Source: Patescibacteria group bacterium (lineage in GTDB: Bacteria; Patescibacteriota; Microgenomatia; UBA10105; UBA927). Taken from it: 64,000 nucleotides of DNA. The DNA is taken from NCBI GenBank assembly GCA_035510735.1, contig DATKGN010000007.1, positions 105 through 64,104 on the forward strand. The letters are read 5' to 3'. Each line of letters starts with the position of its first letter. Within the stretch, counting starts at the first letter, position 1. Of the stretch, positions 20,568 to 43,570 are shown piece by piece. The translations under genes and the position numbers were made by a program. The notes beneath the pieces are model-generated. The model made no database searches, was not told where the DNA came from, and saw nothing but the letters and a program-made list of their open reading frames with translations.

Positions 20568-20569
20568 CG

Positions 20570-22640: not shown

Positions 22641-22672
22641 ATATGAATATCATACAATTTTTGTATGTATTG

Positions 22673-24879: not shown

Positions 24880-24999
24880 AATGAAAAATAACCGGCAGGA
24901 GGACTAATTAATGCCGAACTATAGTACGATTACTTCGACCTGTCAAGCAAAGTTGATAAATATCGAAGTGGGGATATTTCGGCCGGTACTAATGGGAAA

Positions 25000-25644: not shown

Positions 25645-25764
25645 AATATCCTATAATTATAACATACAGCCACAAAACTATCCAGATTACGCTATGAATA
25701 GCCAAGCGAATTCACGCAGTTCATACGTTGACAAAAATAGAAATGAGCCTATACTACGCTCCAT

Positions 25765-26499: not shown

Positions 26500-26543
26500 A
26501 ATCTTTATCCTGCAATTGACAGCGACAAATCGTTCGTATTATC

Positions 26544-27281
26544 ATGCCGCGCATGGCAGTACCGGCAGAAACCACCATCCGTCCTTGGCTCGACTTGCAA
26601 TACAGTTCTGTTGAGATTCCATCCAATCTGGAAAATGCAGGGTTGTATATTGAGTTCCCCACAAATCCAGACACCGGTAAAATCGCACTCACCGGCATAA
26701 AACTACCACTTGGACAAAAAGCTTCACTTGTCTATCCATCATTTACCGTTCGCGACAGTCCCGTACATATTATTCTAGAAAGTATGCCGGCAAGAGGAGC
26801 GTTCCCAGAACTCGGTAAGCGAGCGTATCCGGAGCAAGGGAAAATAACGTATGTGTATAGCGGGGTAAAAGGTGGGCATTTTCTGATATCACGTTCCAGC
26901 GAAAACCCGTGGAAGATTGGCATATTGAGAGAAACGGTAGCCAACGCATACTGGGATAGCAAGGACCGTTCGCTCCACATCAATCCAACTTTGGCAACAC
27001 TCCCAGTTGCGATCCTCGTGCACCCCAGGCGAACGTGTACATTTTTTGTCGATTATCAAGGACAATCGCGCCCGCTTGACGTAGAGGATGTATCGCAAGG
27101 GAAAAGCGAGGTTGGCCGGCCCAATCCAAGAGCGTTTGTGGAATTCCACACGGGCAAGCTAGCACGATTGAATCCGTTTCGCCCCACGACATCATGGATG
27201 GTTGGCGGCAAAACGTTATGTACGTTTTCATTTCTCACGCCGCCCCTCGGGCTCACGAAGCAGGAAGCTCCACAATCTTAA
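26544..27281 (+). CDS. hypothetical protein (245 aa), tandem paralog 2
   Basis: See 25765..26499. Confidence 0.5.
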   Translation: MPRMAVPAETTIRPWLDLQYSSVEIPSNLENAGLYIEFPTNPDTGKIALTGIKLPLGQKASLVYPSFTVRDSPVHIILESMPARGAFPELGKRAYPEQGKITYVYSGVKGGHFLISRSSENPWKIGILRETVANAYWDSKDRSLHINPTLATLPVAILVHPRRTCTFFVDYQGQSRPLDVEDVSQGKSEVGRPNPRAFVEFHTGKLARLNPFRPTTSWMVGGKTLCTFSFLTPPLGLTKQEAPQS

Positions 27282-27961
27282 GTTGATGTAACGGGGTTTA
27301 TCGCTTCGGTCCCAGACACAAATGTAGCACCGGGAGAAAGAATCAGTGTGCCCTCCAGAGCATGAAGATGAGGATTCACTGGCGGTCCGACACGGACTTC
27401 TGTATAGTGAAAAAGTTCCCGTCCGCCTACATCGACTCCAGGGAGCAATGAAGAGCTGTGTTCATACGCTTCAACCAGAACCGAGGCGTCTTTTCCGTTC
27501 CACTGATGGTTAATAACCATCCATGAGTCGTGCGCTTTGTAAAAACGGGAAATAACCGCCGCTGCACCAGGATCACTTACTGCAATTTCCTGATGATCGT
27601 CGCGGTTCAAAAGCACCATGCTGATACTTGCCGGCACCTCCACTTTGGATGCTATCTGCAGCGCGTCTACAAGCGTTCCAACGTCAGTAGGGATCGTCCA
27701 ATCAAGCCCGACGTAGGAAGAGGTTTCCGGAATCCACATTTTCATCCCTGCCGGAGTTTTGATATGATTCCAATCGCCCTTGTGGTTCCTCGTCTGAAGA
27801 TCCAGCAATTCCAAATTGCCGATCTCAACCGGCTTAAAAACCGCTTTCCCTCTGTTTTCAGAACTTAGTGCTGCTTCAACGTGAAATGCCATAGATTTAT
27901 CCGCCAATAACCTCCACAACACCAGCGCCACCGAATCCTGGTTCTTTGGGCTGACAATCAT
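27278..27961 (-). CDS. hypothetical protein (227 aa)
   Basis: ORF; overlaps upstream ORF by 65 nt out of frame. Confidence 0.4.
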   Translation of the reverse strand: MIVSPKNQDSVALVLWRLLADKSMAFHVEAALSSENRGKAVFKPVEIGNLELLDLQTRNHKGDWNHIKTPAGMKMWIPETSSYVGLDWTIPTDVGTLVDALQIASKVEVPASISMVLLNRDDHQEIAVSDPGAAAVISRFYKAHDSWMVINHQWNGKDASVLVEAYEHSSSLLPGVDVGGRELFHYTEVRVGPPVNPHLHALEGTLILSPGATFVSGTEAINPVTST

Positions 27962-28526
27962 GAAATACTACAATAAGCTTTGGTGGCGGAACGTCAGATG
28001 AGGGTGTTCCGAGCATAAAATATTTCTTGTCATTATACGGTTCAACAGTCGTCACAGAAAGCCCTATCGCCTTTCTCATCGTATTTTCCCTAATCTGCAT
28101 AACATGACCGTCAACATCAAATCCAAGGGTTGTATTCCACGGGGGTAAACCTTTTGCACCATACACTAAATCTATAGAGCGATGTAACCCGGGGAACGGT
28201 ATATCCGCTCGTTTAGCAACAAGAAGTCTGGATTGTTTTAGTTTTGGTTGCACAACAACGATCGGCGCCTCAGGCATAACGACTAACCACTTCATATCCA
28301 ACTCTTCATGACGAAGATCATGCCAACCATCACCTAATATTGTTGTTAATTCACCGATCCCCCTGATAAACCCATTCATTTCTCGTTGTTGTTCAGAATT
28401 CAGCTCTTGAGGATACGATTGTCCAGCTCTCACTTCTATATTCGGACTATATGTGAGCGCTAACCCTAATTTAACCGCTTGAGTAAATATATCAGGTTGA
28501 ACTTCTTTTACTGCTGTTGTTGACAT
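27897..28526 (-). CDS. hypothetical protein (209 aa)
   Basis: ORF; 65-nt out-of-frame overlap with downstream ORF. Confidence 0.4.
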   Translation of the reverse strand: MSTTAVKEVQPDIFTQAVKLGLALTYSPNIEVRAGQSYPQELNSEQQREMNGFIRGIGELTTILGDGWHDLRHEELDMKWLVVMPEAPIVVVQPKLKQSRLLVAKRADIPFPGLHRSIDLVYGAKGLPPWNTTLGFDVDGHVMQIRENTMRKAIGLSVTTVEPYNDKKYFMLGTPSSDVPPPKLIVVFHDCQPKEPGFGGAGVVEVIGG

Positions 28527-28600
28527 AACAAATCCCTTAGTGGACAGCTAGAGTATGCTGCGAATAATATATCGACGAACCGATTGTGTCAACAAATGAA

Positions 28601-29830
28601 TTATCGGGAGCCATTCACAAACGAAACCAGATATGGATGAAATTGCCGCGCGATCGCAAATATTTCACCGAGCACCTGCTCGCGGGTGTACCCCTTCTCA
28701 ACCAATTTTCGCATGTCCCACTTTTCTACTATAAAATTATAACCCACCGACTCGGTATCCCCTTTCTCAATGTGTGCGATGCGAAATAGTAACCCTATTG
28801 AATTTTCAGGATCAAGCGCTTCGCCAAAGAACGTAATCGAATGCATATTTGATATGCAATAATCACCAAATTTCTCAATCATCTCGCCTATCGATTCGTC
28901 ATTATCGCCAAAAACAGACATCATCTCTGTGGGGAATACTACCATGCCTTCAATCCTGCCTCCCTTTTCATTCTCTTCGTCATCAGTCGACTTCATATCT
29001 ATCTTGTAAACCATGCCATCTATCGTGACCTGTCCGCCAGTTTCATATTCAATCGGCTCCGTCCCTTCGACCGGCTCTAGCCACTCGCCCCGAACTTCAT
29101 GAGCACCCAATGCACTAATCGCGCTCACCGGCCATGCGGGGGGTTTCGTCTCAATGCGTTCTTCCCGCTTTTTGATAAGCTTCGGTATCTCATTTTGGAT
29201 AAAGGTAGGCGTGTATTCTTTGAGCGTTCGTACCAAATTCCCCAAACGCTCGGCTATTTGAGCGCCGTACTGCTCGCGTGTCATGCCGTCATGCGTATTT
29301 GGATCGTGGTAATGACCCACGGGGGTATCTTCAACTTCTATATCAAGCGTGTCATCGTCCTCCGCCTCGCTACTTATACACGCAGCTCCGGAATCGGTCG
29401 CCAACCCGTTCTCATGCATGCGCCAATTAAGACTTGTGTGTCCCTCTTCGCGAAGCCTATCAACCCAGTCGGTCCATGCGTCATCAAGCTCATCTGTAAA
29501 TGACAACAGTTCTTCATCAAACGGCGCGATCGGTACGTGCACGGTGGCACAGAGGAATTCCCACACATCGTCTTCATCCTGACTGCCGGTATGAGACCAC
29601 GATGCGTCAAACTTCACCCAGTCGCCCGTGCTATCTTCCCAACCCGGCGCCCAAAGAAAACCCTGAAGTACATAGTTTTTTGCCTCTTCCGGATCACGGA
29701 ATAGATGCGGTTCAAATCCGGGTTCGGCGCACACAAACCGCGACCGTATAAACCCCTGCAAGAATTCCGGGGCTTTCGTCAGGGATAATTCGGGATATGG
29801 TTTACCATCAAACGTTTCAAGACCACCCAT
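28601..29830 (-). CDS. hypothetical acidic protein (409 aa)
   Basis: Long ORF, Asp/Glu-rich; no recognisable motif. Confidence 0.45.
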   Translation of the reverse strand: MGGLETFDGKPYPELSLTKAPEFLQGFIRSRFVCAEPGFEPHLFRDPEEAKNYVLQGFLWAPGWEDSTGDWVKFDASWSHTGSQDEDDVWEFLCATVHVPIAPFDEELLSFTDELDDAWTDWVDRLREEGHTSLNWRMHENGLATDSGAACISSEAEDDDTLDIEVEDTPVGHYHDPNTHDGMTREQYGAQIAERLGNLVRTLKEYTPTFIQNEIPKLIKKREERIETKPPAWPVSAISALGAHEVRGEWLEPVEGTEPIEYETGGQVTIDGMVYKIDMKSTDDEENEKGGRIEGMVVFPTEMMSVFGDNDESIGEMIEKFGDYCISNMHSITFFGEALDPENSIGLLFRIAHIEKGDTESVGYNFIVEKWDMRKLVEKGYTREQVLGEIFAIARQFHPYLVSFVNGSR

Positions 29831-29986
29831 AGGCCGCTACTATAGCCTAAAACACCCAGAAGTGCAAATTAAAACCCTCTCCGAAATGACCGGCGACTTC
29901 GAACTAACGTGTATTCAAACGTACATATAGCGGACACATTCACATACTATTGATTTATTATCTTTATAGGATATATAATACGTGGT

Positions 29987-30805
29987 ATGAAATCGCAGGC
30001 AGAAGAAGCACGCAGGTCGCCACTTGGGCCTTCAGAAGCATTTTTACCACCGCAATTATTTGATCCGTCCTTATGGATACCGGTGAAAAAACTCGGTGAT
30101 AATGTGCCCATCGAAATATATGTCACAGGGCTTATCCTTTCTGATACATCACTTTTTTGGCAAAAATCCGCAGATTACGGCACCGAAACGATTTTTATCG
30201 TCGATAAATCACAAATCACACGAATAGATTGTAAACCTATGGTCCCTTTTCTGGATGCCCCCGATTGGGTGCAGGAAGCCAACAAGACGCTCCCAAAAGA
30301 CGACGAGATGATGTTCCAGGAACTAACCTCTGCCATGATTGATCCTCATAAGACATTCGCGCAACTATCTCACCAATCGGTTGTCTATACACCCGACGGA
30401 GCGAAGAATGATATTCTTGTGGCCCACACAGTGATATTGCGCCTGAATCATCCGAAAATCCCATTCATCCCGCCGCTTATAGAAATTTCCGACCCCGTAG
30501 GCAATGCGTTTGTCGATATCGGGGAACTTCAGGAGCGGCGCACACTCCTCGTCTCAACGGCGTTTTCAATAGAAACCCGCGTAGAAAGTGACGGTAAAAT
30601 GCCCGATATGAATATAAGCACGAAACTCATTTCGGAACACGAACAGCGACATACCAAAGTTCAGGAAGGTGCTGATCTTCAAAGTATTGGACTGCAACTC
30701 TTTGGCGTACGGGTCCAAAATGATAAAACATCCTTTAATGCCACTGAGGCTCAACTTCTGGAAAAAACCACCTTGCGCCTCAGGCAGCCAACGGAAAACT
30801 TCTGA
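29987..30805 (+). CDS. hypothetical protein (272 aa)
   Basis: ORF; no recognisable motif. Confidence 0.45.
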   Translation: MKSQAEEARRSPLGPSEAFLPPQLFDPSLWIPVKKLGDNVPIEIYVTGLILSDTSLFWQKSADYGTETIFIVDKSQITRIDCKPMVPFLDAPDWVQEANKTLPKDDEMMFQELTSAMIDPHKTFAQLSHQSVVYTPDGAKNDILVAHTVILRLNHPKIPFIPPLIEISDPVGNAFVDIGELQERRTLLVSTAFSIETRVESDGKMPDMNISTKLISEHEQRHTKVQEGADLQSIGLQLFGVRVQNDKTSFNATEAQLLEKTTLRLRQPTENF

Positions 30806-30841
30806 CGCGGCGGCAGACTCTCGGATAAAGTAAATGGGGCA

Positions 30842-32155
30842 CTACTCCTGAGGCGGTTTATGAAGCAATCGCTTTGCTGCGTTCAGGCGGGCTTTTTCTT
30901 TCAAGTTCTGATCGCGCCATATTTCATCCTGCTTTTGACTCAGGATGTTACGTAATGCGCTTTCGTTAAACCCCTCGGTGTCAATCTTACTCACGAGATC
31001 GACAAATTCTTCTTCCATCGCCAATTCCCGTATAGCACGTCGCCCATCCATCCACGCGCCGTGCTCCCATCGATTCTTCCAAAGCGATTGCAGGTAATCG
31101 TACTTTGCCCCTTTTTGATCCTCCTCGGGCACCAACGTGTCAATAAGTTTATAAGCTATTTTACTTATTAACGGATATTCGTCCTGTAACAACGGGAGGA
31201 TCTGGACGACGATTTTCTGCCCGTCCAGCTGAGCCAGATCTTTTAACGTCACCAACACCTCAAGATCATCGGATACAGGTTGCTCAAAGTCGGGTCTCCA
31301 TCCTGCTGTTTTCCACGCTAACAACTCTTGATTGCACGCACGGGCCGCATCCTGTTCCGTAAACGCCCGCCATGACACCTCTCTGGGGTCAATAACCAGC
31401 GCCAATCTTTCGATAAATTCACCCAGACTAGACGTAGTATGTTGATACCTCTCTTCATGCCACTCATGTAACTGGTTAACAGCCGATTGTGCTGCTAGCT
31501 TCACTCCCTCAGGCGGCACACTCCACTCGGTCCGAATAAGCTGAAATACCCGTCCTACCACCTCTTGTGCATGTTCTATAGAGGATCTACCAAAACTTTT
31601 CCCGAACATTATATAGTCATGGATAACATATTCGGCTAACACTTGTTGATCCGCCTCATCTGCTCCAAGATACTTTGCCAAAAAAAGTTCTTTAAGCGTT
31701 ATCGGGTCATCCAAACGAGGAGGTCCGAACGCGTTGTTTTCATCAACATGCTTTCTCAAACCCGCCCACTTATTGGTATACGCTTCTTTTACCTCCGGAA
31801 ATAATCGAATGACGTCATCAACCATATCGTAACGCTTAGGATGATGAAAATTAATTAACTCATCTACATCGTGAACAAGGTAAAATGAATCGGATAAAAA
31901 ATCCATAAGAACGGACGCTTCTTTCGAGAATAACTCCCCGACTAATTCATCTGTTTTATCTGTAGGGAGGGTGAAGCTGTGTACCCCGTCTGCGAGTTTT
32001 GTGTAGAGATCCAGTCTCTTATTATGATCTAGCTCATTCGTGAGATGCAGAGTGAGGTCTTTTAAATGATCAAGAAGTATACTCTGTGCTTCGGGAATCG
32101 AAAGATCTTTTGCTTGCTCTACTCCTGCTACCATACGTTCTTTATTTTTGGGCAA
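30842..32155 (-). CDS. hypothetical protein (437 aa)
   Basis: Long ORF; helical composition; no convincing family A blocks. Confidence 0.45.
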   Translation of the reverse strand: MPKNKERMVAGVEQAKDLSIPEAQSILLDHLKDLTLHLTNELDHNKRLDLYTKLADGVHSFTLPTDKTDELVGELFSKEASVLMDFLSDSFYLVHDVDELINFHHPKRYDMVDDVIRLFPEVKEAYTNKWAGLRKHVDENNAFGPPRLDDPITLKELFLAKYLGADEADQQVLAEYVIHDYIMFGKSFGRSSIEHAQEVVGRVFQLIRTEWSVPPEGVKLAAQSAVNQLHEWHEERYQHTTSSLGEFIERLALVIDPREVSWRAFTEQDAARACNQELLAWKTAGWRPDFEQPVSDDLEVLVTLKDLAQLDGQKIVVQILPLLQDEYPLISKIAYKLIDTLVPEEDQKGAKYDYLQSLWKNRWEHGAWMDGRRAIRELAMEEEFVDLVSKIDTEGFNESALRNILSQKQDEIWRDQNLKEKARLNAAKRLLHKPPQE

Positions 32156-32212
32156 ATTGTGAATTCACGGAGATTATAGGACCGGTAGATAGGTCTGTCA
32201 AATAGAGCCGAT

Positions 32213-32899
32213 TCAATATGATGATATGGGCGCTTCCGATAGCGGAGTTCTTCGGAGAAAATCGAGTCTCACAGGCTCATAACCCCAACCAGCCTTGTCT
32301 CCTGAATTGATGGTAAATACTCTCATCGTCCCGAAATATGGTGATCCGGAATCCATACGCAATGATGGCCGGAGAAAAAATGAGAGCCGGGATACATTCT
32401 CAATTTCGTGAGACGTAGGCCACTGCCCCCAACAGGCCCGTGGAGCGTTATGCAAATAGTCTTCTATAGAATCCAACCCCCCGCTCACAATCTTAAATGT
32501 CTCAATATCGCGGGTTATCGTAAAATTTGAAGGCGATCCCATATACCATACGTTACTATCCTTTGTCCGGACCAAAAAATAGCTATGGACAGGTTCAATG
32601 AACCGATGTTGCGGGCTCTCTTTCCATGAAGTCAAAAGCACAAACCGGTCAAATAGTCGTCCTGCCTGTTTATCTTTTGCAATTGACCATAACGCCAAGG
32701 CCGATGCATCGTGGCATTTGAATTTCGTCCAAGCAACCAGATCGAACAAAGATTTGTCAAACGATACAACTTTTTCTTCACCCTCCCCTTCTCCTGCCCA
32801 CGCTAACAATCCGGGCTCAATTTGCCGCCAGAAAGAATACCGCATGGAATGGGCGACAACGTCTCTTGACATTTGTACGCCGTCATCAAGTTCTTGCAT
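32213..32899 (-). CDS. hypothetical protein (228 aa)
   Basis: ORF. Confidence 0.45.
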   Translation of the reverse strand: MQELDDGVQMSRDVVAHSMRYSFWRQIEPGLLAWAGEGEGEEKVVSFDKSLFDLVAWTKFKCHDASALALWSIAKDKQAGRLFDRFVLLTSWKESPQHRFIEPVHSYFLVRTKDSNVWYMGSPSNFTITRDIETFKIVSGGLDSIEDYLHNAPRACWGQWPTSHEIENVSRLSFFLRPSLRMDSGSPYFGTMRVFTINSGDKAGWGYEPVRLDFLRRTPLSEAPISSY

Positions 32900-33049
32900 A
32901 TAGTGATATTGATTATATCAAAAAGTATCAAATAAGTTTACCAATTCCCGCCCCAGATGCGCTATATATGCACACTATAGACCATATATTAATATATCAT
33001 ATAGTGCTTTTAGTATATATTAGATAATCAGAAGATCTTAGGCTGAAAG

Positions 33050-34132
33050 TTATAACGAACGGTCGGGGTGTTGAGATAATGAAAATCCACCGAACTTCGA
33101 CAACATCGTGCTATCAAATAAATCGGATAACGCTCCCGCCAGAAGCGGACCGGACGTCCCATTCACGAGCGTCTCCCATAACGCGTTATCAGCAACACCT
33201 TTTGGCTTAACGAGTGCTCCTTTCGTGCCATTCTTTTTATCAAACCATAATCCATCGCTTTCTTTACCCACTCTCTTTTCCAGTTTCAGCTCATAGTCGC
33301 CCTCAAACATACCCGTTATGGGTGAAAGATCGGAAATTGCCTGCACGGCGTAGTGCCACGCACCTTTCCCATCATTCGTATGACTCAATATGAGGTGTGC
33401 GACATTCGTTTCATACTCGTTTCCCGCCATGTGCTGACTCACTGAAATAGTACAGTCGCCTAATAGGCTTAAATAATTCGTTGACGGAGTCAACAGAGCA
33501 TCGATATACCCTTCACGAGTTATTCCGTCATGCACGATCCTGTATCTCCGGTCTTCCCGAACAGAAGCAGGCACGCTTGACTCAGGTTTAAATTGAAAAA
33601 CCAAATTCCTGCCGGCTTCTTTGATTTGTATTGATTTGAGATATTTACCCTCCTGTTCTCCTGAGGTTTTAGGAAAAGTAAACATGATAAGCGCTTGTTC
33701 GGAAAGGCGGGTGCTCTCTCCGTTCACCGGTGAAACAACAACTTGAAATGATGATTGCTCAGGGTCAATCTCTGACTCATCACGCGTGAATATACCGTCT
33801 GATCCTAGCTCAACCCTCCCGAACCCCGCATACTGCACCTCATATTCGCCTCCCGCGATAACGACGGGAATACGTGCATCTATTCCTTTTCCTTCAGGGG
33901 GAAGGGTGTCAATAAACGTGGTTACATCAGACGTGAGACCATTCGTTAGAATCGATTCAGCGAGGGCCGGAACCGGAGACAACTTCTGCATCTCGGGAAC
34001 CGGGTCAAATAGTTCATCAAACAATTGTGGCACCAGCGCGAGCGCCCGATCACGGGCTTCCCCTATTTCTCCCGCGGCAAGCTGACTCTTTGTGCTATGA
34101 AATATATCCACAGCCTGATCAGCATTCCCCAT
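33050..34132 (-). CDS. hypothetical protein (360 aa)
   Basis: ORF. Confidence 0.45.
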   Translation of the reverse strand: MGNADQAVDIFHSTKSQLAAGEIGEARDRALALVPQLFDELFDPVPEMQKLSPVPALAESILTNGLTSDVTTFIDTLPPEGKGIDARIPVVIAGGEYEVQYAGFGRVELGSDGIFTRDESEIDPEQSSFQVVVSPVNGESTRLSEQALIMFTFPKTSGEQEGKYLKSIQIKEAGRNLVFQFKPESSVPASVREDRRYRIVHDGITREGYIDALLTPSTNYLSLLGDCTISVSQHMAGNEYETNVAHLILSHTNDGKGAWHYAVQAISDLSPITGMFEGDYELKLEKRVGKESDGLWFDKKNGTKGALVKPKGVADNALWETLVNGTSGPLLAGALSDLFDSTMLSKFGGFSLSQHPDRSL

Positions 34133-34287
34133 ATTGCTATCAGTATATCAGTGAATTTCAACTTGACACGTATCTTTTCGTCAACGTATCCCAACCTGCT
34201 TACGATACATATTGGTTGCATCCTCATACCGCATCCGTGCTGCATTGCATAGATATACCCCATAAGGATACGCTGTAACCGGCTTCT

Positions 34288-34584
34288 ATGCCCACATTCC
34301 TTGAGCGAAGCGCTGTCCGAAGTTTCTTTTTTTCCTTCGGTGAACTGGAGGTCCTCGATAATTTAAAAATTTCCAAAGAACAGAGAGAACAAATAGTCGA
34401 CGACCAATTAGCCGCCTCCGACGCCCGGTTGGCAAAAGCCGGAGCCTCCGGGTTTAAACTCCAGGGAGTCATCGCCGATCATGAATCTATAGCAAGGAAA
34501 AAAGGAGAACCGGATTGGGATGAAGTGAAGCGGGATGCAATCCGCGAAATGGCACACAAAATGGCTGCAGAAACTGAGCTATAA
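34288..34584 (+). CDS. small hypothetical protein (98 aa or shorter)
   Basis: ORF in the gap between two minus-strand genes; charged, helical composition. Confidence 0.3.
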   Translation: MPTFLERSAVRSFFFSFGELEVLDNLKISKEQREQIVDDQLAASDARLAKAGASGFKLQGVIADHESIARKKGEPDWDEVKRDAIREMAHKMAAETEL

Positions 34585-34632
34585 TCTGCTCCCCTTTTTA
34601 GGACTTCAAAGAATGCAGATTTGGGATCTCAA

Positions 34633-36036
34633 TTACGTTAGAAGCGGCTTGTTCCCCAACTCAAATGTGTCAACTAGATCCTGAAGATTTACCGCATATG
34701 TTTTTCCTGTATGTATTTCAATGCCATAATATATCCCATACCGCCAGATAGTTTCTGGAGTTAGTTCGCAGAACCGTATGCCTTTCCCATTCCGTGTGTT
34801 CACAATCGCTATCTCTGTCCGTGCCTCTTTGTAGTCTGAAAGAGTAAGATCCTTTTTTTCAAACGGAGAAAGCCAGCCGCCGCGATGATGTCTGAATTTT
34901 ACATGCAAAGGTACGCCATTGAATGAACAGTCCCCCTCTGAAGGGATATATTGTTGACGAAAATGTTCGTATATATATTTCAGAGGCAGGGCCAAATCCT
35001 GGTGCGTCAACCCAAGCTCATGCACCCGGTCATTCATATCCAGCATATGTGAAATCAGTGATTCTCCGGGCGCAAGCATCGCATCACGCGTTTTAATTAA
35101 CGGATATTCGCTCGGGACCTGCAGTTGTGTCGTTAATGACTGTATATCATGTCCGTTTATGTGCGTAATTCCAAGTATTGTCGCTTCATCGTTAACGCCT
35201 CCGATGTTGAACCCATTATCAACGTCCCCCGTCGAATCAAATCTGACACCAAGCTGTTCGGGCGTAGGTTCAGCGATAAACTCAGATGAATTTTCCACAA
35301 CCATACCACCCCCATGAGGTGATATTGCGAAACGATACGATGCATTTTGAACGATGAGCGTCGGGACAGTTCTTGTATCCTCAGGAGCGTAAAAATGACG
35401 CGGAGCTACACCTTTACCAATGATTTGTAAATCCGGAGTTATTTTATCCCGCACGTACTGTCCTAACGGCTTAAACACTCTCATAAGCCGGTCACCTTCA
35501 AATACGAATAATAACGTAATCGATGACGATTCATCATCTGTTTGCTCGAGATACGTACAGGAATATAAATTTTCTGACATTCTTGTAAAATTAGGGTGAA
35601 GTTCAATTTGTTTCTTCACCATTGGTGTATTTAAATCAAATAACGTATATTGGCGTTTGTCATCCTTCACATGAACCTGACCATTTTCGAAAGTAACATC
35701 AGGTACATTCAAGGATCCACTACTGCCGGATCCTCCTGCTAGTTTTCGTTCGTAGTTAAAAAATTTGGAATGGAATTGGATTGAAGAGACAATCATAACT
35801 TCGTTCCAGGTTGCAAATGTCTCATCGCCGACTATGCCAATTGCAAATGCATTGTGTATATCATCAGTGTCATCAAAAAAATCCGTAAAAATATTGGCTG
35901 TAGTGCCATCCGGATTATAGAGAATAGCGAATCCCGGCGTAATCCAAACGTTTGTGTCGTCAATTTGGCGGAATTCCGATGCCTGAATTCCATGTTCATG
36001 AGCAGGACCTCTTTGTAGCAGATTACCTTCGTACAT
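34633..36036 (-). CDS. hypothetical protein (467 aa)
   Basis: ORF. Confidence 0.5.
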   Translation of the reverse strand: MYEGNLLQRGPAHEHGIQASEFRQIDDTNVWITPGFAILYNPDGTTANIFTDFFDDTDDIHNAFAIGIVGDETFATWNEVMIVSSIQFHSKFFNYERKLAGGSGSSGSLNVPDVTFENGQVHVKDDKRQYTLFDLNTPMVKKQIELHPNFTRMSENLYSCTYLEQTDDESSSITLLFVFEGDRLMRVFKPLGQYVRDKITPDLQIIGKGVAPRHFYAPEDTRTVPTLIVQNASYRFAISPHGGGMVVENSSEFIAEPTPEQLGVRFDSTGDVDNGFNIGGVNDEATILGITHINGHDIQSLTTQLQVPSEYPLIKTRDAMLAPGESLISHMLDMNDRVHELGLTHQDLALPLKYIYEHFRQQYIPSEGDCSFNGVPLHVKFRHHRGGWLSPFEKKDLTLSDYKEARTEIAIVNTRNGKGIRFCELTPETIWRYGIYYGIEIHTGKTYAVNLQDLVDTFELGNKPLLT

Positions 36037-36197
36037 AAGAGAGAATTATACTATAGGGCAATATCATATGCAAATATACGTAATTTCCTGGGGAACCATT
36101 TTATTGACCTGGCCCGTCATAATGGTCTATACTCTCCTATCATATATCTTAAGAACGACCTATTCCATGCGGGTAGCATGGATACATAAACAACACT

Positions 36198-36809
36198 ATG
36201 ACCGGAAATGAGACTCATGAAAATCAACAACTCGTCGAGGTGAAGAGGTACTTAAATGAGATGGCACTACGAGAAGTTCAGGCGCTATCCGGCCTTATCG
36301 ACCAATACGTCGCGCCACATGTTGCCATAGAGCATCCGAGCGTTCTCATTGTAGGGCAGGGATTTCGATACACAGAAACAATTGCAATTGATGACCGTCT
36401 GACGCCCGGCCATATCACCTCTGCCGATAACGGTTTTTCTGAAATAGGATTGCATTACTCACTACAGAATGCGATTGCAGGCGGCGTCACCCGCGACGCG
36501 AACATCCTTTCACTGACAACACACGTTTCTTCTGATTTCCAGGATTTGGATGAGACGTATGACATTGTCTTCGCGTTTAGTTTGGCGCTAAGCCTCCAAA
36601 ACCCGGAGTGCGTTGAGCAACTCCTGGGTAAAAGTCGCGGACTCTCTGTCATCACTGCCCATAAGCCAAGCGAGGATCTGAGGGGGTTTCTACTGGAAGA
36701 ATATGTGCATATAGATCAATTACTTGAACAACGGGGTGTATCTTTTATCACACGCAAAGAATCCCTCTCTCTCCCAACTAAAGACGGACATATCTGGGTG
36801 ATGAAATAA
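36198..36809 (+). CDS. hypothetical protein (203 aa)
   Basis: ORF. Confidence 0.45.
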   Translation: MTGNETHENQQLVEVKRYLNEMALREVQALSGLIDQYVAPHVAIEHPSVLIVGQGFRYTETIAIDDRLTPGHITSADNGFSEIGLHYSLQNAIAGGVTRDANILSLTTHVSSDFQDLDETYDIVFAFSLALSLQNPECVEQLLGKSRGLSVITAHKPSEDLRGFLLEEYVHIDQLLEQRGVSFITRKESLSLPTKDGHIWVMK

Positions 36810-36849
36810 CAAACAGAATCAAACTATATCGAGGCGTGTAGATTTTGGC

Positions 36850-38031
36850 TTATTTATCGTCTTCCCGCTGAGGAATGACGTAGAGCCGTTCAATAATTTG
36901 ATGACCGGTGTACACATTTGCTTGACCCCACCACTGTGCAGACCGTATCATTTTCTTAACATCTGCCTTCTCTAAAGGGGCGAAGCAATCGGAACGTCGG
37001 ACATCCATAATCTCAAACAGGCGCTCGCCGCGCGGATTGAGCTCAATGATAAAGCCCCGGTTTACACGCGCGCCGAAGAGAATATCGTGAGCATCCCACA
37101 ACCCCATTGGATTAATTTCTGCGGCATCCGGCACATACATCGTTGTGTTATCAGATACTTGCTTTCCCTTCGTTTCGTCCGTCGATACGAAATTCCGGAA
37201 ACCGATATAGTTGCGGATGGCATTCCCACGGGATTCAAGCTCTCTTCCTCTCGTCGATCCATTCACTTCCGGAACAAAATCATCGTTGGCAGTAAACCGT
37301 ATTGATTGTATCTCATCAGGAAGAAACTGACTCACATATGTTCCGCGACTGACTGTCCCTATGAGGAGTTCAATTGCGGGAGCAATTGTTTCTCCAACCG
37401 CCATCACGGTAAAATTTGACCTGCGTCTAATCCGATTGCTCTCATACGGCAACGGGAAAATCATCCGGCTGGGTAAGACTTCCCCATATTGGTCTTCATA
37501 CATCTGTCGAAGATAGATAAGCTGTTCTCTTGATTCCGTAAAATAATGTGCAAGTGGTCTCTCCAAGTCAATATCGCCTGCAAGTTCAACTTCCACGCCC
37601 TTAGCGAGATGTGGAAACAGGAAAAGCGCCCGATACAAGAGGTCGTTCATCGCGTCGACAGCTTGTACATTTTCCTGGTGAGACCTATTCGCCTGGAATG
37701 TATGCAGTAAATCATCAAGCCGCCGGTTCAGGCCGCCCACCCCCTCCCGTTCGATAACGGTTAAATATTTGACGTCTTTGACTAATCGGGTAATATAGGG
37801 ATTTTGAAATTGCTCGCGCTCTGTCTCAAACCTGCTCACGAGATTATTTACAGAACCAACCGAGGCAATCGTTGTTTCATTCCCGTAGTAAGACAAACTA
37901 CTTATGAATCCTTTTTCATATTCGCTGGTCGGTCCAAGAGAGTCTACCGGGCGCGACACAAGACTGGTAATCCGGTTTTGAATAAGCTGGATGTGAGGCG
38001 GTGAATCGTATTGATGTGTCCCTTCTTTCAT
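36850..38031 (-). CDS. hypothetical protein (393 aa)
   Basis: ORF. Confidence 0.5.
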   Translation of the reverse strand: MKEGTHQYDSPPHIQLIQNRITSLVSRPVDSLGPTSEYEKGFISSLSYYGNETTIASVGSVNNLVSRFETEREQFQNPYITRLVKDVKYLTVIEREGVGGLNRRLDDLLHTFQANRSHQENVQAVDAMNDLLYRALFLFPHLAKGVEVELAGDIDLERPLAHYFTESREQLIYLRQMYEDQYGEVLPSRMIFPLPYESNRIRRRSNFTVMAVGETIAPAIELLIGTVSRGTYVSQFLPDEIQSIRFTANDDFVPEVNGSTRGRELESRGNAIRNYIGFRNFVSTDETKGKQVSDNTTMYVPDAAEINPMGLWDAHDILFGARVNRGFIIELNPRGERLFEIMDVRRSDCFAPLEKADVKKMIRSAQWWGQANVYTGHQIIERLYVIPQREDDK

Positions 38032-38162
38032 GGCGTGATTATACTATAAGACCCAAAAATACCATACTTTTGCACAGAAGCGAATGATAACAATGGTCAA
38101 ACACACGCAGGTAATCCGATAGAATTTTGGTCGCTTTTCCAAAAAGCATCTGATTTGAATTT

Positions 38163-38235
38163 TACTCCCGTTTTAACACTTCAAAAATAGCTGACTTGGG
38201 GAATTTCTACCCGGCCGATCAATTTCCCTGCAGAG
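38163..38235. repeat. degenerate direct copy (copy C) of the lepA 3' end, putative displaced att site
   Basis: 'ctcccgttttaacacttcaaaaatagctgacttggggaatttctacccggccgatcaatttcc' vs lepA 3' end 'ctctctttaacacttcaaaaaacgctgactgagggatttcgacccggcctattaatttca'. Confidence 0.6.
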
Positions 38236-38312
38236 CGGGATTTCGTCCTTCGACAGACTCAGGACTCAACATTCTCGCCTCACCCAACCATTTCCCTTAT
38301 TAACTATATATA

Positions 38313-39524
38313 TTGATATCTAACTATACTTTACTATATAATTCCGACATGGCTGCTATTGAATTTGCGGATGTAAAACCAAAAGATATTGATTTAACCG
38401 GCATCCCGACAGGATGGAATATCCTTTCTGAGGCCGAACATTCGCTGGCTTGGGATTTTTTATCCGGACGAAATACTGAAACGCTTCGGAGCATCATCAC
38501 AATGGAAGGAAGAAATACGTTTATTCTGCGGCCCGGCTCCCCTGATCCGATATACACCCATATTCAGCTTTCCGGAGGATTTTATAAGGAGCTAGAAATA
38601 TCAAGAAATGGGATGGCCATATCCAAAAATACTGTCCATCTATTATCTGCTGATAATTTCGTCTTGGGACGGGAACCCATGTTTAGAACCAATGCAATAA
38701 CAGAGGACGGCCAAATAACGACGACCCAGCCTGATTATGTCCCCACCGGAGCATATACACAAATGCAGGCTATAAAAAAAGCTATTGATACCCTTTCTAT
38801 CACAGCCAGTCTGGAAAAACTGAAAGCTCTCGATTTTCCTGATAAAAAAATGTTTATGGTTCCGAGGATTGTCGGCGTCTATCAATTTCCGGAAGTTACT
38901 GACCCGACAGGTGAGCCGGTATACGGAATTGCTATGCTCACATCTTCCCCTGAAAACAGGCTGAGCCAACGTATAAATAGTTTTTTCAACAGGTATGGAA
39001 AACACTATGAAGCGTCCATAAACAGACGGATACAGAGGAATTTCGGCTACCAAACGGTCGCACTGGGGGCAGCCATACGGACGCTTCATGATTCCTTTGA
39101 CCTGTATCACCGTCAGATAACCAGCGGCAACTGTGAAATTGTAACGTTGCCGGATAACCAGTTCACGCCCTTCTTTCATGATTGGAGCACGACGATGAGG
39201 CTCCCTAAAAACCTTCGTCCTAATAGGATGGCGCGCGCAATTGACCTCATAATACCATGGGCATCCGTTTCCATTTTGATGGACCATATGCGCGAAACCG
39301 GCGCAACAAACAACGACGTTGCGCAATTTATGACCACGTCGTTTCTCGCGAATCTTACGGCAGGGTATGTGCATTTGCTGCCACGAAGATCAAACGAGTT
39401 TGAGAAAGAATTATTTTCTCAATTCACTCTTGCCGAAACGGACAGTAGCACCGTTGAGCGTTTAGCAAATTTTATCACCTCTTTTGATGCTACTATCGGA
39501 GTAGAAACAGAAGAAGAAATATAA
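38313..39524 (+). CDS. hypothetical protein (about 390-403 aa), sole cargo gene of the distal lepA-associated module
   Basis: ORF bounded by lepA 3'-end copies C and B; probable ATG at 38349 (MAAIEFADVK); weak, unverified kinase-fold-like features (glycine-rich 'QLSGGFYKE', 'YHRQITSGNCEI', 'FHDWS'). Confidence 0.5.
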   Translation: MISNYTLLYNSDMAAIEFADVKPKDIDLTGIPTGWNILSEAEHSLAWDFLSGRNTETLRSIITMEGRNTFILRPGSPDPIYTHIQLSGGFYKELEISRNGMAISKNTVHLLSADNFVLGREPMFRTNAITEDGQITTTQPDYVPTGAYTQMQAIKKAIDTLSITASLEKLKALDFPDKKMFMVPRIVGVYQFPEVTDPTGEPVYGIAMLTSSPENRLSQRINSFFNRYGKHYEASINRRIQRNFGYQTVALGAAIRTLHDSFDLYHRQITSGNCEIVTLPDNQFTPFFHDWSTTMRLPKNLRPNRMARAIDLIIPWASVSILMDHMRETGATNNDVAQFMTTSFLANLTAGYVHLLPRRSNEFEKELFSQFTLAETDSSTVERLANFITSFDATIGVETEEEI

Positions 39525-39536
39525 CTCTTCCAGTTC

Positions 39537-39600
39537 AATTATTCTCTCTTTAACACTTCAAAAAACGCCGACTGGGGAATTTCGACGAGACCTTAGAATT
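39537..39600. repeat. direct copy (copy B) of the lepA 3' end, putative att site between two cargo modules
   Basis: 'caattattctctctttaacacttcaaaaaacgc' is 33/33 identical to the lepA terminus at 41417..41449; then diverges (cgactggggaatttcgacgagaccttagaattca). Confidence 0.65.
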
Positions 39601-40127
39601 CAAGATTGTAATAGTTGTAGGATCTTTCCCATTATCGCCAACTGCTTACTCGCTTTTTCGATCACGCTCTTTGAAAACAGTCCCTTATAAGACAAATAGT
39701 CCATTGCTTCGCCCTCATCTAAATATTTTTGATGAAATTCTCGTTTACATTGTGGTGTGGACCAAGTCGCATGTGATCGTCGAGGTTCTCGAATATCTAG
39801 AAACAAGCCTTCGACACATGGCTCTGGGACGAAAATAACCCACCTATTGCCAATTAATAGATCTCTTCGTGGTGACGATAATTTAGTATCACCATCCAAT
39901 AGCAATAATTTTCGTGAGTAAGGAATCTCTCCATGCGCTTGCATTGCTTTTTTTGCAGCACCATCAGCTCCGCCTCCATGAGCATTATCGTATCTCACTA
40001 ACTTCCCACATCCTCGCGGACAATATAAACCACCTAAATAATGCAAAAAAGCTTCGTCTGTGGGACCCTCACCGTATAATAGTATCGATTGAAGCTGCAG
40101 ACGATGCAATTGTGATTTCTTACGCAT
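39600..40127 (-). CDS. small TOPRIM-like protein (RloB-like / DUF4276-like), partner of the AAA ATPase
   Basis: N-terminal 'ILLYGEGPTDEAFLHYLGGLY' (hhh-EG-x-TE motif of RloB/DUF4276/OLD-TOPRIM) and downstream 'LLLLDGDTK' acidic motif; starts 3 nt after the ATPase stop on the same strand. Confidence 0.55.
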   Translation of the reverse strand: MRKKSQLHRLQLQSILLYGEGPTDEAFLHYLGGLYCPRGCGKLVRYDNAHGGGADGAAKKAMQAHGEIPYSRKLLLLDGDTKLSSPRRDLLIGNRWVIFVPEPCVEGLFLDIREPRRSHATWSTPQCKREFHQKYLDEGEAMDYLSYKGLFSKSVIEKASKQLAIMGKILQLLQS

Positions 40128-40130
40128 ATC

Positions 40131-41342
40131 TTATACATTCGGCCGTCCTCCATATATTCCAGCCAAATATTTTTTTAAATAGTTACTATCGCTTCTGATA
40201 TCATCAACGTCATCGAGTCGCCAAATGTTCGTTTGACCCTTTTGATTTTTCTCAGTCAAAAAGACCTGGTACATATCCAGACGGTCGAGCATTTGGATAT
40301 TATGCGTCGACGCTATAAGTTGAGCGTTCTTTGGATTCCATTTTGGCGAAGCGAATAACTCAACAATTTTCGGCATCATCATGGGATGAAGCCCTTCTTC
40401 AATATCATCATAAACGACAACACCTCCATCTTTGAGTGCAGGAAGAACGTCTCTTAAGAGTAAATAGAGATTTTGTGTACCATGAGATTCGTTGTAAAGG
40501 GTCAACGGATAACGACTGTTCTTTCCTATTTCATGAATACCAAATGCAAAATAATCATCTATCATCTTGTCTGAACGATCTTTACGCTGTCGTTTTTCAA
40601 TCTTCATTTCCGACAATCCAAGATCAAATTCTGAAATTAGTCGATCGGCCAATAGTTTTTCCTCACTATGAGAATAAAAATACTTAACGGCCTCATCAAT
40701 GTCTTCCCAACGATTATTTAATGTCTTCCCCATCATCCCAACATTAGTCACAGATTTATCCCAATATTTAGCAATTGATAGACACTTAGGATTGTTTAAC
40801 GTGACCCCAATTGACACTACGGAAGCGTTTTTTCGGCTGAGCGCTTGAACGATGCTTTCGCTTTTCCCAAAGAGCTTCGTGTTTATAACGTAATTGTTAG
40901 AGTTTTTATTCCATTTTTTTCTAAAAATATATTTAATATATTTCCCTTCATTTTTTTCTTTCAGAGACTCCGCAACGACATGCTCTTCAGTAAAAATTAA
41001 AGAATAATAGTATATCGACGTACCATCTAAAAACTCAACCTCAATGTGGGTTGGTTTATTTACAAATTTTGGGGAAAATACAAAAGAGTCAAACGGTATT
41101 TTGCTATCTGGTTTCATTTGCGAGGAGGCGGGAATGAAAAAATTCAAGAATGATAATATCTTGAGAGTGTTAGTTTTCCCCGACGCATTCGGACCAAAAA
41201 TGAAATTAATTTTAGAAATACGATCATTAAAAATCGTTTTCACATAATCAGAAGTCGAAGGTGCGTTCCCATTAACATAAAACGATATATCTTGCTTCTC
41301 CCCAAGGGAATAAAAATTATTTATAACCAAACGACGAATCAT
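40131..41342 (-). CDS. ABC-type AAA ATPase (AAA_15/AAA_21 family), AbiLi/OLD-ATPase-like
   Basis: N-terminal 'IRRLVINNFYSL'; Walker A 'FGPNASGKTNTL'; signature-like 'ESHGTQNLYLLLRDVL'; Walker B 'GGVVVYDDIEEGLHP'; H-loop 'IASTHNIQML'; gene is markedly AT-richer than its neighbours. Confidence 0.75.
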   Translation of the reverse strand: MIRRLVINNFYSLGEKQDISFYVNGNAPSTSDYVKTIFNDRISKINFIFGPNASGKTNTLKILSFLNFFIPASSQMKPDSKIPFDSFVFSPKFVNKPTHIEVEFLDGTSIYYYSLIFTEEHVVAESLKEKNEGKYIKYIFRKKWNKNSNNYVINTKLFGKSESIVQALSRKNASVVSIGVTLNNPKCLSIAKYWDKSVTNVGMMGKTLNNRWEDIDEAVKYFYSHSEEKLLADRLISEFDLGLSEMKIEKRQRKDRSDKMIDDYFAFGIHEIGKNSRYPLTLYNESHGTQNLYLLLRDVLPALKDGGVVVYDDIEEGLHPMMMPKIVELFASPKWNPKNAQLIASTHNIQMLDRLDMYQVFLTEKNQKGQTNIWRLDDVDDIRSDSNYLKKYLAGIYGGRPNV

Positions 41343-41419
41343 ACCGTGAAGTATAATCGTTTATTACAAATTTGTCAATATTATACGAATTTTTGTATAA
41401 AATCGATAAATTTGAACAA

Positions 41420-43570
41420 TTATTCTCTCTTTAACACTTCAAAAAACGCTGACTGAGGGATTTCGACCCGGCCTATTAATTTCATCCGGGCTTTTCCTTT
41501 GGCCTGTTTCTTTAATAATTTATCCTTACGTGTCCTATCGCCGCCGTAGAGCTTCTGGATAACGTCTTTGCGGAATGCTTTCACATCGGCACGTGCTACA
41601 ATCTGGCCCCCAATGGCGCCCTGGATCGGAATCTGGAACTGCTGGCGCGGGATAACCTGGGCCAACCGCTCGACGATGGCTATGCTCCGATGGTGCGCCT
41701 GATCGCGGACGGCGAGAAATGAAAGTGCGTCGACTTTTTCTTTGTTTACCAAAATATCAATTTTTACCACATCGACCGCCTGAAATTCAAAAAATTCATA
41801 ATCCAGGGATGCATAACCCTCCGAAATACTCTTTAAACGGTCAAAAAAATCAATAATCATATCGGAGAGCGGGAGCAAATACGTCATCTCGACCATAATG
41901 CGCGAATCAAATTCATTAGGCTCGTCTTCGACCTCACCCGCTTTGTCTATTGTTGTATTGTTGTATTGTTGTATTGTTACTTCTCCATGTAAGTACTTCA
42001 TATCGATGTATTCGCCGCGCTTCTCCTGCGATAGCTGCATGATCGCGCCGACGTAGCGCTTGGGGGTAAAAATTTTCACATCCATGATGGGCTCTTTCAC
42101 GCCGTCGATGTAGGTTGGGTCGGGAAATTCGGTTGCGGATTGAATGGCGACCTCGACGCCTTGATCGGGCGCTGAGGTTGCTCGTCCAATTTCTCGGGCA
42201 GTTCGATCCCCGCTTTGCGGGGCCGCTTCGCCGGACGTCTCGAAATTGTCCAAGCGCCCCGCGCCCCGTACAAGTTCTGGGTGTTCATTTATAACAGACG
42301 ATACGGTCAATCCTAATTTAGAAAGCGATACGCCGCGCGCGAGCATGAGATGATATTCAACCGACGGCGCCGTCGCAATCATGTCAAGGTCAAACTCACG
42401 CGAAAGCCGTTCCTGCACAATTTCGGCGTGGAGTAAACCGAGGAATCCGCAGTGGAAACCATTGCCCAAGGCAAGGGATGAGATCGGCCGGAAGGTGAAA
42501 GCCGAGTCGCTTAACCGCAATTTTTCCATACACTCGCGTGCATGGGTAAATTCGTCGGCGTTTAATGGGAAGAGGCTCAAAAAAACCATGGGTTTGGGCT
42601 CCCTATATCCCGGTAGCGCCTCTTTTGCCTGCTTAGGCTGTATATGAGCATTCACGGTACTTCCGGCCGTTATGGTGTCACCTACCTTCGCTAAACGTAC
42701 ATCCTTAAGGCCTGTGGCAATGTACCCCACTTCACCAGTCGAAATCCCAGCAGATTTTACCATTTGGGGCATAAAAAAACCTGCCTCAATTGCCTGAATT
42801 TGAGCATTTGATGCGAAAAACTTAATACTCGTATGTGGATCGTACTGCATAGTACCATCAACTACCCGAACAAACACTACTACTCCTTTATGCGGGTCGT
42901 ACTGTGAGGAAAATATTAGTGCCCGCAGTGGTTTATCGGCATCACCGAACGGCGGCGGGATCCGATCAATAATTGCCTCAAGAACCGCTGGAACATTTTG
43001 CCCGGTCTTAGCGGAAATCTCTATCATCTCCTCATCTCTAAACCCTAATGCTCTAAGCTCTGCGCGCGTTTCGACAATGCGCGCGTGCGGCATATCAATT
43101 TTATTAATCAAGGGAATTACGGTGAGGTTGTGGAGGCGCGCCTGATGGAGGTTCGCGAGGGTCTGCGCCTGGACGCCCTGGGTAGCGTCTACCACGAGAA
43201 GCGCGCCTTCACACGCCGCAAGCGACCGGGAAACCTCATAACCGAAATCAACATGGCCGGGAGTGTCGATGAGATTTAATATAAACTCCTCCTTGCTGTC
43301 ATTCCGGGCTTGACCCGGAATCCACACCGCATTCTCATGGATCCCGGCTCGGGGGCCGGGATGACAAAAAAAATGCATCCTCACCGGCGCAAGCTTTATC
43401 GTAATCCCCCGCTCACGCTCAATGGGATTGCTGTCAAGAAGCTGCGCCTGCATATCGCGCATCGCAACCGTCCCGGTAAGCTCCAGAAGCCTATCGGCGA
43501 GGGTACTTTTCCCATGATCGATATGGGCTATGATCGCAAAATTTCTAATATGATCTTGTTTCATATGCAA
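41420..43570 (-). CDS. lepA: elongation factor 4 (LepA)
   Basis: G1 '[18 protein letters not shown]', '[10 protein letters not shown]', '[16 protein letters not shown]', 'LINKID'; LepA-specific C-terminus '[34 protein letters not shown]'; the track start is a TTG, the likely ATG is 3 nt in (MKQDHIRNF). Confidence 0.95.
   Translation of the reverse strand: [716 protein letters not shown]
41421..41490. repeat. lepA 3'-terminal segment (copy A) that is repeated at 39537 and 38163; putative attL core
   Basis: Reverse complement encodes the lepA C-terminus '...[17 protein letters not shown]'. Confidence 0.65.
41948..41979. repeat. in-frame octamer tandem repeat (tattgttg)x4 inside lepA, encoding 'QQYNNTTI'
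   Basis: Seen directly; lies in a lineage-specific insertion relative to canonical LepA (between 'YHGxxV' and 'LDFFDRLKS'). Confidence 0.6.
43297..43367. mobile_element. ~70-nt palindromic element inserted in-frame in lepA (RPE-like), termini TGTCAT...ATGACA
   Basis: 'tgtcattccgggcttgacccggaatcc...ggatcccggctcgggggccgggatgaca': two internal hairpins plus terminal inverted repeats. It encodes '[23 protein letters not shown]' between ITIK and [12 protein letters not shown]. Removing it restores canonical LepA spacing. Confidence 0.6.

Follow-up and report, generated by a model that had tools for sequence, protein, structure and literature searches.

A stretch of 64,000 nucleotides from a Patescibacteria group bacterium (positions 105 to 64,104 of the forward strand of contig DATKGN010000007.1, assembly GCA_035510735.1; hereafter the window, at its full length) carries, just downstream of lepA, a gene pair that is very probably an ordinary, if diverged, member of the known AbiL/RloAB family. 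The pair consists of an AbiLi/RloA-like ABC ATPase of 403 aa (40131..41342, minus strand), which the public record labels merely 'AAA family ATPase', and an AbiLii/RloB-like small protein of TOPRIM type with 175 aa (39600..40127, minus strand). The sections below demonstrate that the pair belongs to this family, that its two-gene layout is conserved, that its catalytic residues are intact, that it is under purifying selection and that it is inserted at lepA in the manner of a cassette. A sequence-only reading of this DNA, made without database searches, had proposed an AbiL-type ATPase with a TOPRIM-like partner, and this core claim is now supported by hidden Markov models (HMMs), synteny and structure prediction. 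Taken as a whole, a two-gene AbiL/RloAB system that possesses its own promoter and acts in a PARIS-like manner is the somewhat favoured reading of the locus.

Gene order, motifs and base composition

The ATPase gene comes first and the small gene second, co-oriented and adjacent, which is the gene order of AbiL in the sense of PADLOC and DefenseFinder. The ATPase stop codon TAA occupies 40131-40133 and the small gene begins with an ATG at 40127 on the same strand, so that a gap of 3 nt lies between them; both open reading frames (ORFs) and their spacing were thus correctly read from the sequence beforehand. All the motifs quoted at that time are also in place, including a Walker A motif GPNASGKT at residues 50-57 of the ATPase, the stretch SHGTQNLYLLL at residues 286-296 with the signature-like ESHGT at 285-289, a Walker B stretch VVYDDIEEGLHP at residues 309-320, and an H-loop STHN at residues 345-348 (S345-T-H347), as well as ILLYGEGPTDEAFL at residues 15-28 of the small protein.

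The pair had been described as richer in AT than its surroundings, and a comparison with the flanking genes agrees. The ATPase gene has a GC content of 0.360 (0.349 at third codon positions, GC3) and the small gene one of 0.415 (GC3 0.312), both lower than in the remaining 46 ORFs of the window, where the mean GC is 0.471 (standard deviation 0.036) and the mean GC3 is 0.467 (standard deviation 0.050). The identical gene pair, together with the same displaced lepA remnant downstream of it, is present on contigs of four other independent samples (L006-L009), and it is therefore not an assembly artefact.

The ATPase and its Walker B variant

The ATPase matches Pfam AAA_21 (1.6e-36) and AAA_15 (5e-10), and the PADLOC model AbiLi PDLC02335 covers its residues 1-403 with an E-value of 2.4e-64 (215 bits), which confirms its placement among the AAA_15/AAA_21-type defence ATPases. 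The PADLOC matches named 'AriA' stem from generic AAA_21-like models, and an NCBIfam search with the ATPase and the small protein returned nothing near any cut-off. The AlphaFold2 (AF2) model of the ATPase (pLDDT 89.7) finds its best solved-structure matches in Rad50 heads, in PtuA of Septu and retron systems and in SMC heads (E ~1e-11), and the closest solved relative of the family profile by sequence is likewise PtuA (8ee4, 7e-9). We collected 151 homologues of the ATPase; the protein of the window keeps the family-invariant residues G50, N52, A53, G55, K56, E285, S286, G288 and D312, as well as H347, whose alignment column is near-invariant (at least 90%).

The ABC motif set, which was called complete in the sequence-only reading, is present as regards Walker A, the signature-like motif, the Walker B Asp and the H-loop, whereas Asp313 stands where ABC proteins carry the catalytic Glu, straight after the Walker B Asp. 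The Walker B motif of the ATPase reads VVVYD312 and is followed by D313 (codon 40404-40406), where homologues read hhhhDE. Among about 105 homologues with a recognisable motif, position 313 is occupied by Glu in 102 and by Gln in one, while Asp was found only in this lineage, the 78%-identical relative P0003 likewise reading VVVYDD with Asp at 313. An Asp at the catalytic-Glu position of ABC proteins is a mark of slow-hydrolysing 'degenerate' sites. The ratio of nonsynonymous to synonymous divergence (dN/dS) of the ATPase against its counterpart in L001, a locus from a related organism, is 0.061, which denotes strong purifying selection, and Asp313 is therefore a maintained variant and not a sign of decay. 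The exchange of Glu for Asp after Walker B suggests that ATP is turned over slowly, as would suit a sensor that stays in an ATP-bound state.

The small protein

The small protein matches the PADLOC model AbiLii PDLC02338 at residues 49-161 with an E-value of 2.5e-7, which is weak taken alone, and a word-indexed search of 5.8 billion proteins returned a single near-identical match. ATPase homologues of about 40% identity are followed by a gene of about 176 aa with Pfam RloB, and BLASTP alignments with these syntenic RloB partners extend across almost the whole of the small protein, with an identity of 28-31% (E 1e-22 and 2e-24). Among species-representative genomes, a scan recovered 43 loci in which a homologue of the small protein begins about 10-20 nt past the ATPase stop, distributed over Patescibacteria, Verrucomicrobiota, Proteobacteria, Omnitrophota and other phyla. 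Pfam RloB was matched by 27 of 33 proteins encoded downstream of the ATPase, at best with 1.2e-13, and the family of the small protein comprises 1825 cluster representatives (50% identity) at E<=1e-3. Because of the PADLOC AbiLii match and the homology to syntenic RloB partners, we assign the small protein to the RloB/AbiLii lineage.

E20, G21, D78, P103 and K128 are invariant in both family alignments and are all kept in the small protein; G52 and E106 are invariant in one alignment (E106 reaching at least 90% in the other) and are kept as well, as are the near-invariant D80 and C104. E20, D78-x-D80, E106 and K128 are the predicted catalytic residues. The AF2 model of the small protein (pLDDT 88, pTM 0.81) has the topology beta1-alpha-beta2-alpha-beta3-alpha-beta4, with strands at residues 14-19, 43-48, 72-76 and 96-99 and helices between them; in it E20 comes after strand 1 and D78-G-D80 after strand 3, which is the TOPRIM arrangement. 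In a Foldseek search, the sole significant viral (BFVD) match was a myovirus protein annotated as 'RloB-like protein' (E 9.9e-5, TM 0.62).

Three labels had been offered for this protein from sequence, namely RloB-like, DUF4276 and OLD-type TOPRIM, and they fared differently. The RloB-type, TOPRIM-like character is supported by the AbiLii match, the syntenic homology and the four-stranded TOPRIM-like topology of the confidently predicted model. DUF4276 (PF14103) was rejected, as it was matched neither by the small protein nor by any of 33 family members. OLD-like_TOPRIM (PF20469) was rejected too, with no match in the small protein and one weak match (E 0.006) among the 33 relatives. Neither Pfam nor PADLOC gave a match of the small protein to DUF4435/AriB. 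Taken together, the profile searches with the two proteins of the pair matched AAA_21/AAA_15, AbiLi and AbiLii, and the small protein itself gave no match to the Pfam models RloB and DUF4276.

The replaced catalytic Glu, the absence of a Pfam family for the small protein and the SMC_N and RecF matches of the ATPase would also be explained if the pair were a remnant that is inactive or degenerating, or if the ATPase were a housekeeping repair enzyme of SMC/RecF type with an unrelated small gene as its neighbour. However, these SMC_N and RecF matches are weak and lie far below cut-off, D313 is conserved in the 78%-identical relative, dN/dS stands at 0.06, neither ORF is disrupted and the invariant residues of the small protein are all kept. 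Moreover, the distribution of the pair across phyla is patchy and the pair itself is an insertion. This explanation is largely refuted and we regard it as very improbable.

Leader region, lepA and the age of the insertion

The gene lepA (41420-43570, minus strand) encodes 716 aa with Pfam GTP_EFTU, EFG_C and LepA_C domains and ends 77 nt upstream of the ATPase start, so the pair is, as had been noted, associated with lepA and forms the lepA-proximal unit of the insert described below. The lepA product of another Patescibacteria locus, L024, has 603 aa as against 716 aa in the window. The lepA of the window carries insertions specific to its lineage, such as those near residues 60-95 and 430-480, and the related metagenomic lepA genes have them too.

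A promoter-like sequence, TTGACA-17-TATACT (41350..41378, minus strand), lies in the 77 nt that separate the lepA stop codon from the beginning of the ATPase gene; a consensus scan scored it at 11/12 matches. In L001 this block is conserved ahead of the 78%-identical ATPase. A palindrome, TTATAC-N8-GTATAA (41381..41400), adjoins the -35 hexamer on its upstream side and was read from the sequence as a candidate operator; in L001 its arms are conserved and its spacer differs at 2 positions. The putative promoter and the palindrome, with their conservation in L001, suggest autonomous and possibly autoregulated expression of the pair.

The related organism represented by L001 shares the same lepA-promoter-ATPase junction. 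Between the window and L001, amino-acid identity is 81% for lepA and 78% for the ATPase, synonymous divergence (dS) is 1.7 and 2.0, respectively, and the dN/dS of lepA (0.069) is similar to that of the ATPase given above. The GC content of the ATPase gene is 0.360 in both organisms, and that of lepA is 0.502 in the window and 0.509 in L001. Recent horizontal acquisition was considered as the cause of the low GC and was rejected, since the 78%-identical relative has the same GC of 0.360 and the divergence equals that of lepA. The claim of horizontal acquisition therefore stands in part: the pair lies between the two copies of a duplicated lepA 3' end and so forms a bounded insertion, which is why we regard it as horizontally acquired, and it was not acquired recently, because the junction is shared with L001 and the ATPase has diverged as far as lepA has. 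The module is a long-standing resident whose AT-richness is stable.

Comparison with known systems

AbiL from plasmid pND861 of Lactococcus lactis, in the form in which PADLOC and DefenseFinder model it, is likewise a two-gene operon in which an AAA_15/21 ABC ATPase is followed by a small RloB/TOPRIM-like protein. The pair in the window differs in lying on a Patescibacteria chromosome instead of a lactococcal plasmid, in its very diverged small protein and in the Asp that replaces the Walker B Glu. The likeness is one to the AbiLi and AbiLii HMMs, and no Lactococcus record was found among the plasmid matches listed. RloA/RloB of the type I restriction-modification loci of Campylobacter jejuni represent the same protein pair, as the syntenic partners belong to PF13707 and relatives on plasmids carry the annotations RloA and 'RloB domain-containing protein'. 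Unlike that system, no restriction-modification genes were found near the pair in the window; some relatives are near such genes, L043 adjoining a type III res gene and L032 a SNF2 helicase gene.

PARIS, which is composed of the ABC ATPase AriA and the DUF4435 TOPRIM nuclease AriB (OLD class 4), shares the combination of an ABC ATPase with a separate TOPRIM-type nuclease, whereas the nuclease of the window is of RloB type instead of DUF4435 and its ATPase is smaller, at 403 aa. The OLD enzymes of classes 1-2 (P2 Old, GajA) also combine an ABC ATPase with a TOPRIM metal site, but their domains are fused, while two separate ORFs without PF20469 are present here. Septu and retron PtuA proteins are the closest solved relatives of the ATPase by both sequence profile and fold, but the partner of PtuA is the HNH nuclease PtuB and not a TOPRIM protein.

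Proposed mechanism and alternatives

AbiL has been classed with PARIS and OLD-like defence systems that join an ABC ATPase to a TOPRIM protein, with AbiLii as the toxic TOPRIM effector (PMC11464382, PMC10440598, PMC13064643). PARIS is the only system of the ATPase-plus-separate-TOPRIM layout with a solved mechanism, which comprises sequestration, ATP-dependent sensing and release of a tRNA-cutting nuclease; ATP binding is required for trigger recognition and nuclease release, and the trigger reduces ATP turnover. By analogy, a PARIS-like mechanism of the pair is a real prospect, though we put it at slightly under even. According to this model, the small RloB-family nuclease would be translationally coupled to the ATPase and both would be transcribed from their own promoter just after lepA. 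An ATP-bound oligomer of the ATPase would keep the nuclease inactive and act as the sensor of infection, until a phage-made trigger altered its state and an ATP-dependent remodelling freed or activated the nuclease. The nuclease, with its predicted metal site of E20, D78-x-D80 and E106, might then cut host or phage nucleic acid, the substrate being either tRNA, which is the target in PARIS, or DNA, which is that of OLD; infection would be halted at the expense of cell growth. The sequestration and later release of the nuclease, the nature of its trigger and of its substrate, and the abortive end of infection are all inferred from PARIS and its kin. A sensor with slow turnover is plausible in this scheme, because recognition in PARIS needs ATP binding and its trigger lowers ATP turnover.

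Several points weigh against a PARIS-like AbiL system. How AbiL itself works has yet to be established, and the reviews leave PARIS-like action to be tested; AbiLii and AriB are not significantly similar in sequence, and the superposition of their predicted structures is poor. The small protein matches no Pfam family, including RloB (PF13707), even at E<=1, and a sequence search of the Protein Data Bank (PDB) with its profile returned chance-level matches only, with no solved relative. Its top PDB match by fold is the C-terminal (Toprim) region of a Burkholderia OLD protein (6nk8_A), a weak match with an E-value of 0.017, a probability of 0.75 and a TM of 0.35. As the catalytic Glu is an Asp, the behaviour of the ATPase may depart from that of the studied systems. 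In addition, no defence island is recognisable around the pair, since 10 other ORFs of the insert (27897-39524) gave no PADLOC match, and the long vertical retention of the module fits an addiction module equally well.

The OLD match is also the starting point for a different view, in which the two proteins form an ATP-powered nuclease complex that nicks or degrades invading DNA directly, like class 1/2 OLD or Gabija, without sequestration and release or killing of the host. The two acidic clusters of the small protein (E20, DxD and E106) with K128 resemble the two-metal site of OLD type, the Rad50 and PtuA heads that the ATPase resembles act on DNA, and OLD class 1 enzymes are reported to nick DNA (PMC12392090). 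However, the OLD structural match, although the best among solved structures, is weak; the split genes with a small stand-alone nuclease follow a layout like that of PARIS or toxin-antitoxin (TA) pairs, and NetFlax places RloB partners among the toxins that are neutralised by AAA ATPases. A direct nuclease complex of this kind is thus unlikely, and the PARIS-like reading is retained for the pair.

The lepA 3' end and the inserted cassettes

The array of cassettes that ends at lepA is the more interesting and less expected result, and we report it as a lead. The small-gene stop abuts a displaced lepA 3' remnant (GLVEIPQSAFFEVLKRE with its stop codon; 39536..39600, minus strand), which is a direct repeat of the live lepA 3' end (GRVEIPQSAFFEVLKRE with its stop codon, plus 3 nt; 41417..41481, minus strand). 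The live copy forms the left boundary and the displaced copy the right boundary of a cassette unit of 1881 nt. The two copies are 65 nt long and 86% identical, and an exact core of 33 nt occurs twice, where 0 are expected in shuffles. Four of their five differing codons are synonymous third-position changes and the fifth exchanges R for L, and because the differences lie nearly all at third codon positions, both copies appear to have evolved as coding lepA ends.

Two further displaced remnants were recognised by tblastn with the lepA C-terminus. The second (38165..38252, minus strand) spans about 29 codons with a 1-nt frameshift and bounds module 2, which contains one ORF of 403 aa without a family match (38313-39524, plus strand). 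The third (PKSAFFEVLKR; 34593..34625, minus strand; E 0.005) is the most diverged and weakest of the four copies and bounds module 3, with three ORFs that match no family either. The remnants thereby split the region into three units, namely the AbiL pair, the single 403-aa ORF and the three ORFs, and no paralogy was found among the insert ORFs of modules 2 and 3.

A variable insert of 20.9 kb (20568..41419), in which the AbiL-like pair is the unit nearest to lepA, separates lepA from its ancestral neighbour, a convergent gene for a membrane HExxH protein (19848-20567, plus strand). The distance from lepA to this neighbour is 0.07-0.8 kb in 11 related loci, 2.6 kb in L091 and L109, 6.8 kb in L101 and 20.9 kb in the window. 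Pfam gave no match for the 17 scanned insert ORFs other than the pair, nor did PHROGs for 8 of them, namely seven of the ten submitted to PADLOC together with 20570-22114. No recombinase or transposase was found in the 1.9-kb cassette, which holds two genes only, nor among the 42 ORFs of the window that were scanned with Pfam, and tRNA and Rfam scans of the window for an attachment site or an RNA component returned nothing.

A degenerate search of metagenomes for the coding sequence of the lepA C-terminus yielded 24 related loci, whose lepA is 58-77% identical to that of the window. None of the 24 has the AbiL pair downstream of lepA, which is shared by L001 alone, and in many of them lepA is followed by one or two displaced remnants of its 3' end. 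Cassettes bounded by such remnants are present in L092, L093, L095, L100/L105, L102, L104, L111 and L112. Their cargo includes MNT with HEPN (L093, L100), BrnT with a CopG-type antitoxin (L102) and a YafQ-like toxin pair (L100, and also beside lepA in L091), as well as other ORFs without assignment; no recombinase is present in these cassettes. L097 and L106 represent empty sites, and the sequence past their lepA stop is the sequence past the remnant in L093. Insertion of the ATPase/TOPRIM pair by its own activity was considered and rejected, since unrelated TA cassettes at the same site bear the same kind of lepA remnant.

The remnants differ in length, between 9 and about 30 codons, and the synonymous sites of their shared core are not unusually conserved, which argues against a site-specific recombinase with a fixed core. 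Homologous recombination anchored in lepA, with a short or illegitimate second join, is favoured, and a recombinase acting in trans would be the alternative. A search with two degenerate patterns for a lepA-end site borne by phages or plasmids found nothing in viral contigs.

Cassette arrays at fixed sites that lack their own recombinase are known as pdif/Xer-dependent modules, as cis-mobilisable elements formed by tandem accretion and as integron arrays. The lepA-linked array is similar to them in its small TA or defence modules without a recombinase of their own, each followed by the repeat of the insertion site and with the newest beside the target gene. It differs in that the repeat is the coding 3' end of lepA and is variable in length, shows no obvious dyad symmetry by eye and little DNA conservation beyond coding need, and in that no integrase or Xer site was identified. 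We tentatively propose, at less than even confidence, that in one Patescibacteria clade the lepA 3' end may serve as a capture site at which small TA/Abi cassettes are added serially without a cassette-borne recombinase. Each addition would bring a new lepA 3' end, and the older end would be shifted downstream and persist as a remnant whose length varies. Recombination anchored in lepA might be the route, DNA uptake being followed by a second join that is short or illegitimate, or else a recombinase of the host might act. The AbiL-like pair would then be the lepA-proximal unit of the array and the 20.9-kb stretch behind it accumulated cargo.

The company of classical TA pairs at the same lepA site in relatives (MNT/HEPN, BrnT/CopG-type and YafQ-like) raises the question of whether the pair is mainly a selfish TA (addiction) module, which stabilises itself and the lepA-linked insert without a meaningful anti-phage role in its host. 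Purifying selection has maintained the module over the whole period in which lepA diverged between the two lineages, and AAA-plus-TOPRIM pairs act as TA pairs in NetFlax assays. Nevertheless, the founding AbiL is said, in a second-hand citation of Deng 1999, to have given phage resistance in Lactococcus, of an abortive kind that needs both genes, and a module that behaves as a TA pair can also be a defence system. We consider a purely selfish role quite improbable, and a defensive AbiL/RloAB system remains the preferred reading.

Mobile-element genes and duplicated host sequences were also observed at other loci. The lepA-linked insert of L091 contains an IS200-like Y1 transposase (1353-2039, minus strand of the reoriented locus; PF01797, 6e-11) beside the YafQ-like TA pair. 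L024, from another Patescibacteria metagenome-assembled genome, possesses a large serine recombinase (4008-5468, minus strand; Pfam Resolvase, Recombinase and Zn_ribbon_recom) beside a different AbiL-like pair (6001-7763), at a site 3.3 kb downstream of its lepA. In other phyla, AbiL-like pairs are accompanied by duplicated host sequence, which may be a SNF2 3' end, the 5' end of a downstream gene or an intergenic stretch (100% identity). The pair of L032 is bracketed by a duplicate of about 250 nt of the 3' end of a SNF2 helicase gene (2307-2560 and 4498-4728), that of L043 by a 100-nt duplicate of local host sequence (5803-5902 and 7868-7967), and that of L023 by a duplicate of 122 nt with 100% identity (5620-5741 and 8097-8218).

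Other features of the window and significance

Elsewhere in the window, two adjacent genes for sigma-70 factors (47083-48291 and 48343-49536, both on the plus strand) form a tandem paralogue pair whose products are 41.5% identical, and further tandem paralogue pairs are located at 49561-50250 and 50387-51091, at 25765-26499 and 26544-27281, and at 51983-53362 and 53346-54764. An ORF of 975 aa (60909-63836, minus strand) has a GC content of 0.787 at second codon positions and 0.596 overall, which suggests a low-complexity or repeat protein.

The pair adds a diverged AbiL/RloAB member in a bacterium of the candidate phyla radiation. Its Glu-to-Asp ATPase variant, which is natural and under selection, lends itself to asking whether defence by an ATPase with a TOPRIM partner depends on ATP turnover or requires no more than ATP binding. 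As well, the ORFs of the insert that match no family become candidate defence or TA genes, and the TA/Abi array linked to lepA, whose empty and occupied sites can be compared cleanly in different metagenomes, is a tractable case for the insertion of islets without a recombinase in organisms that are unculturable.

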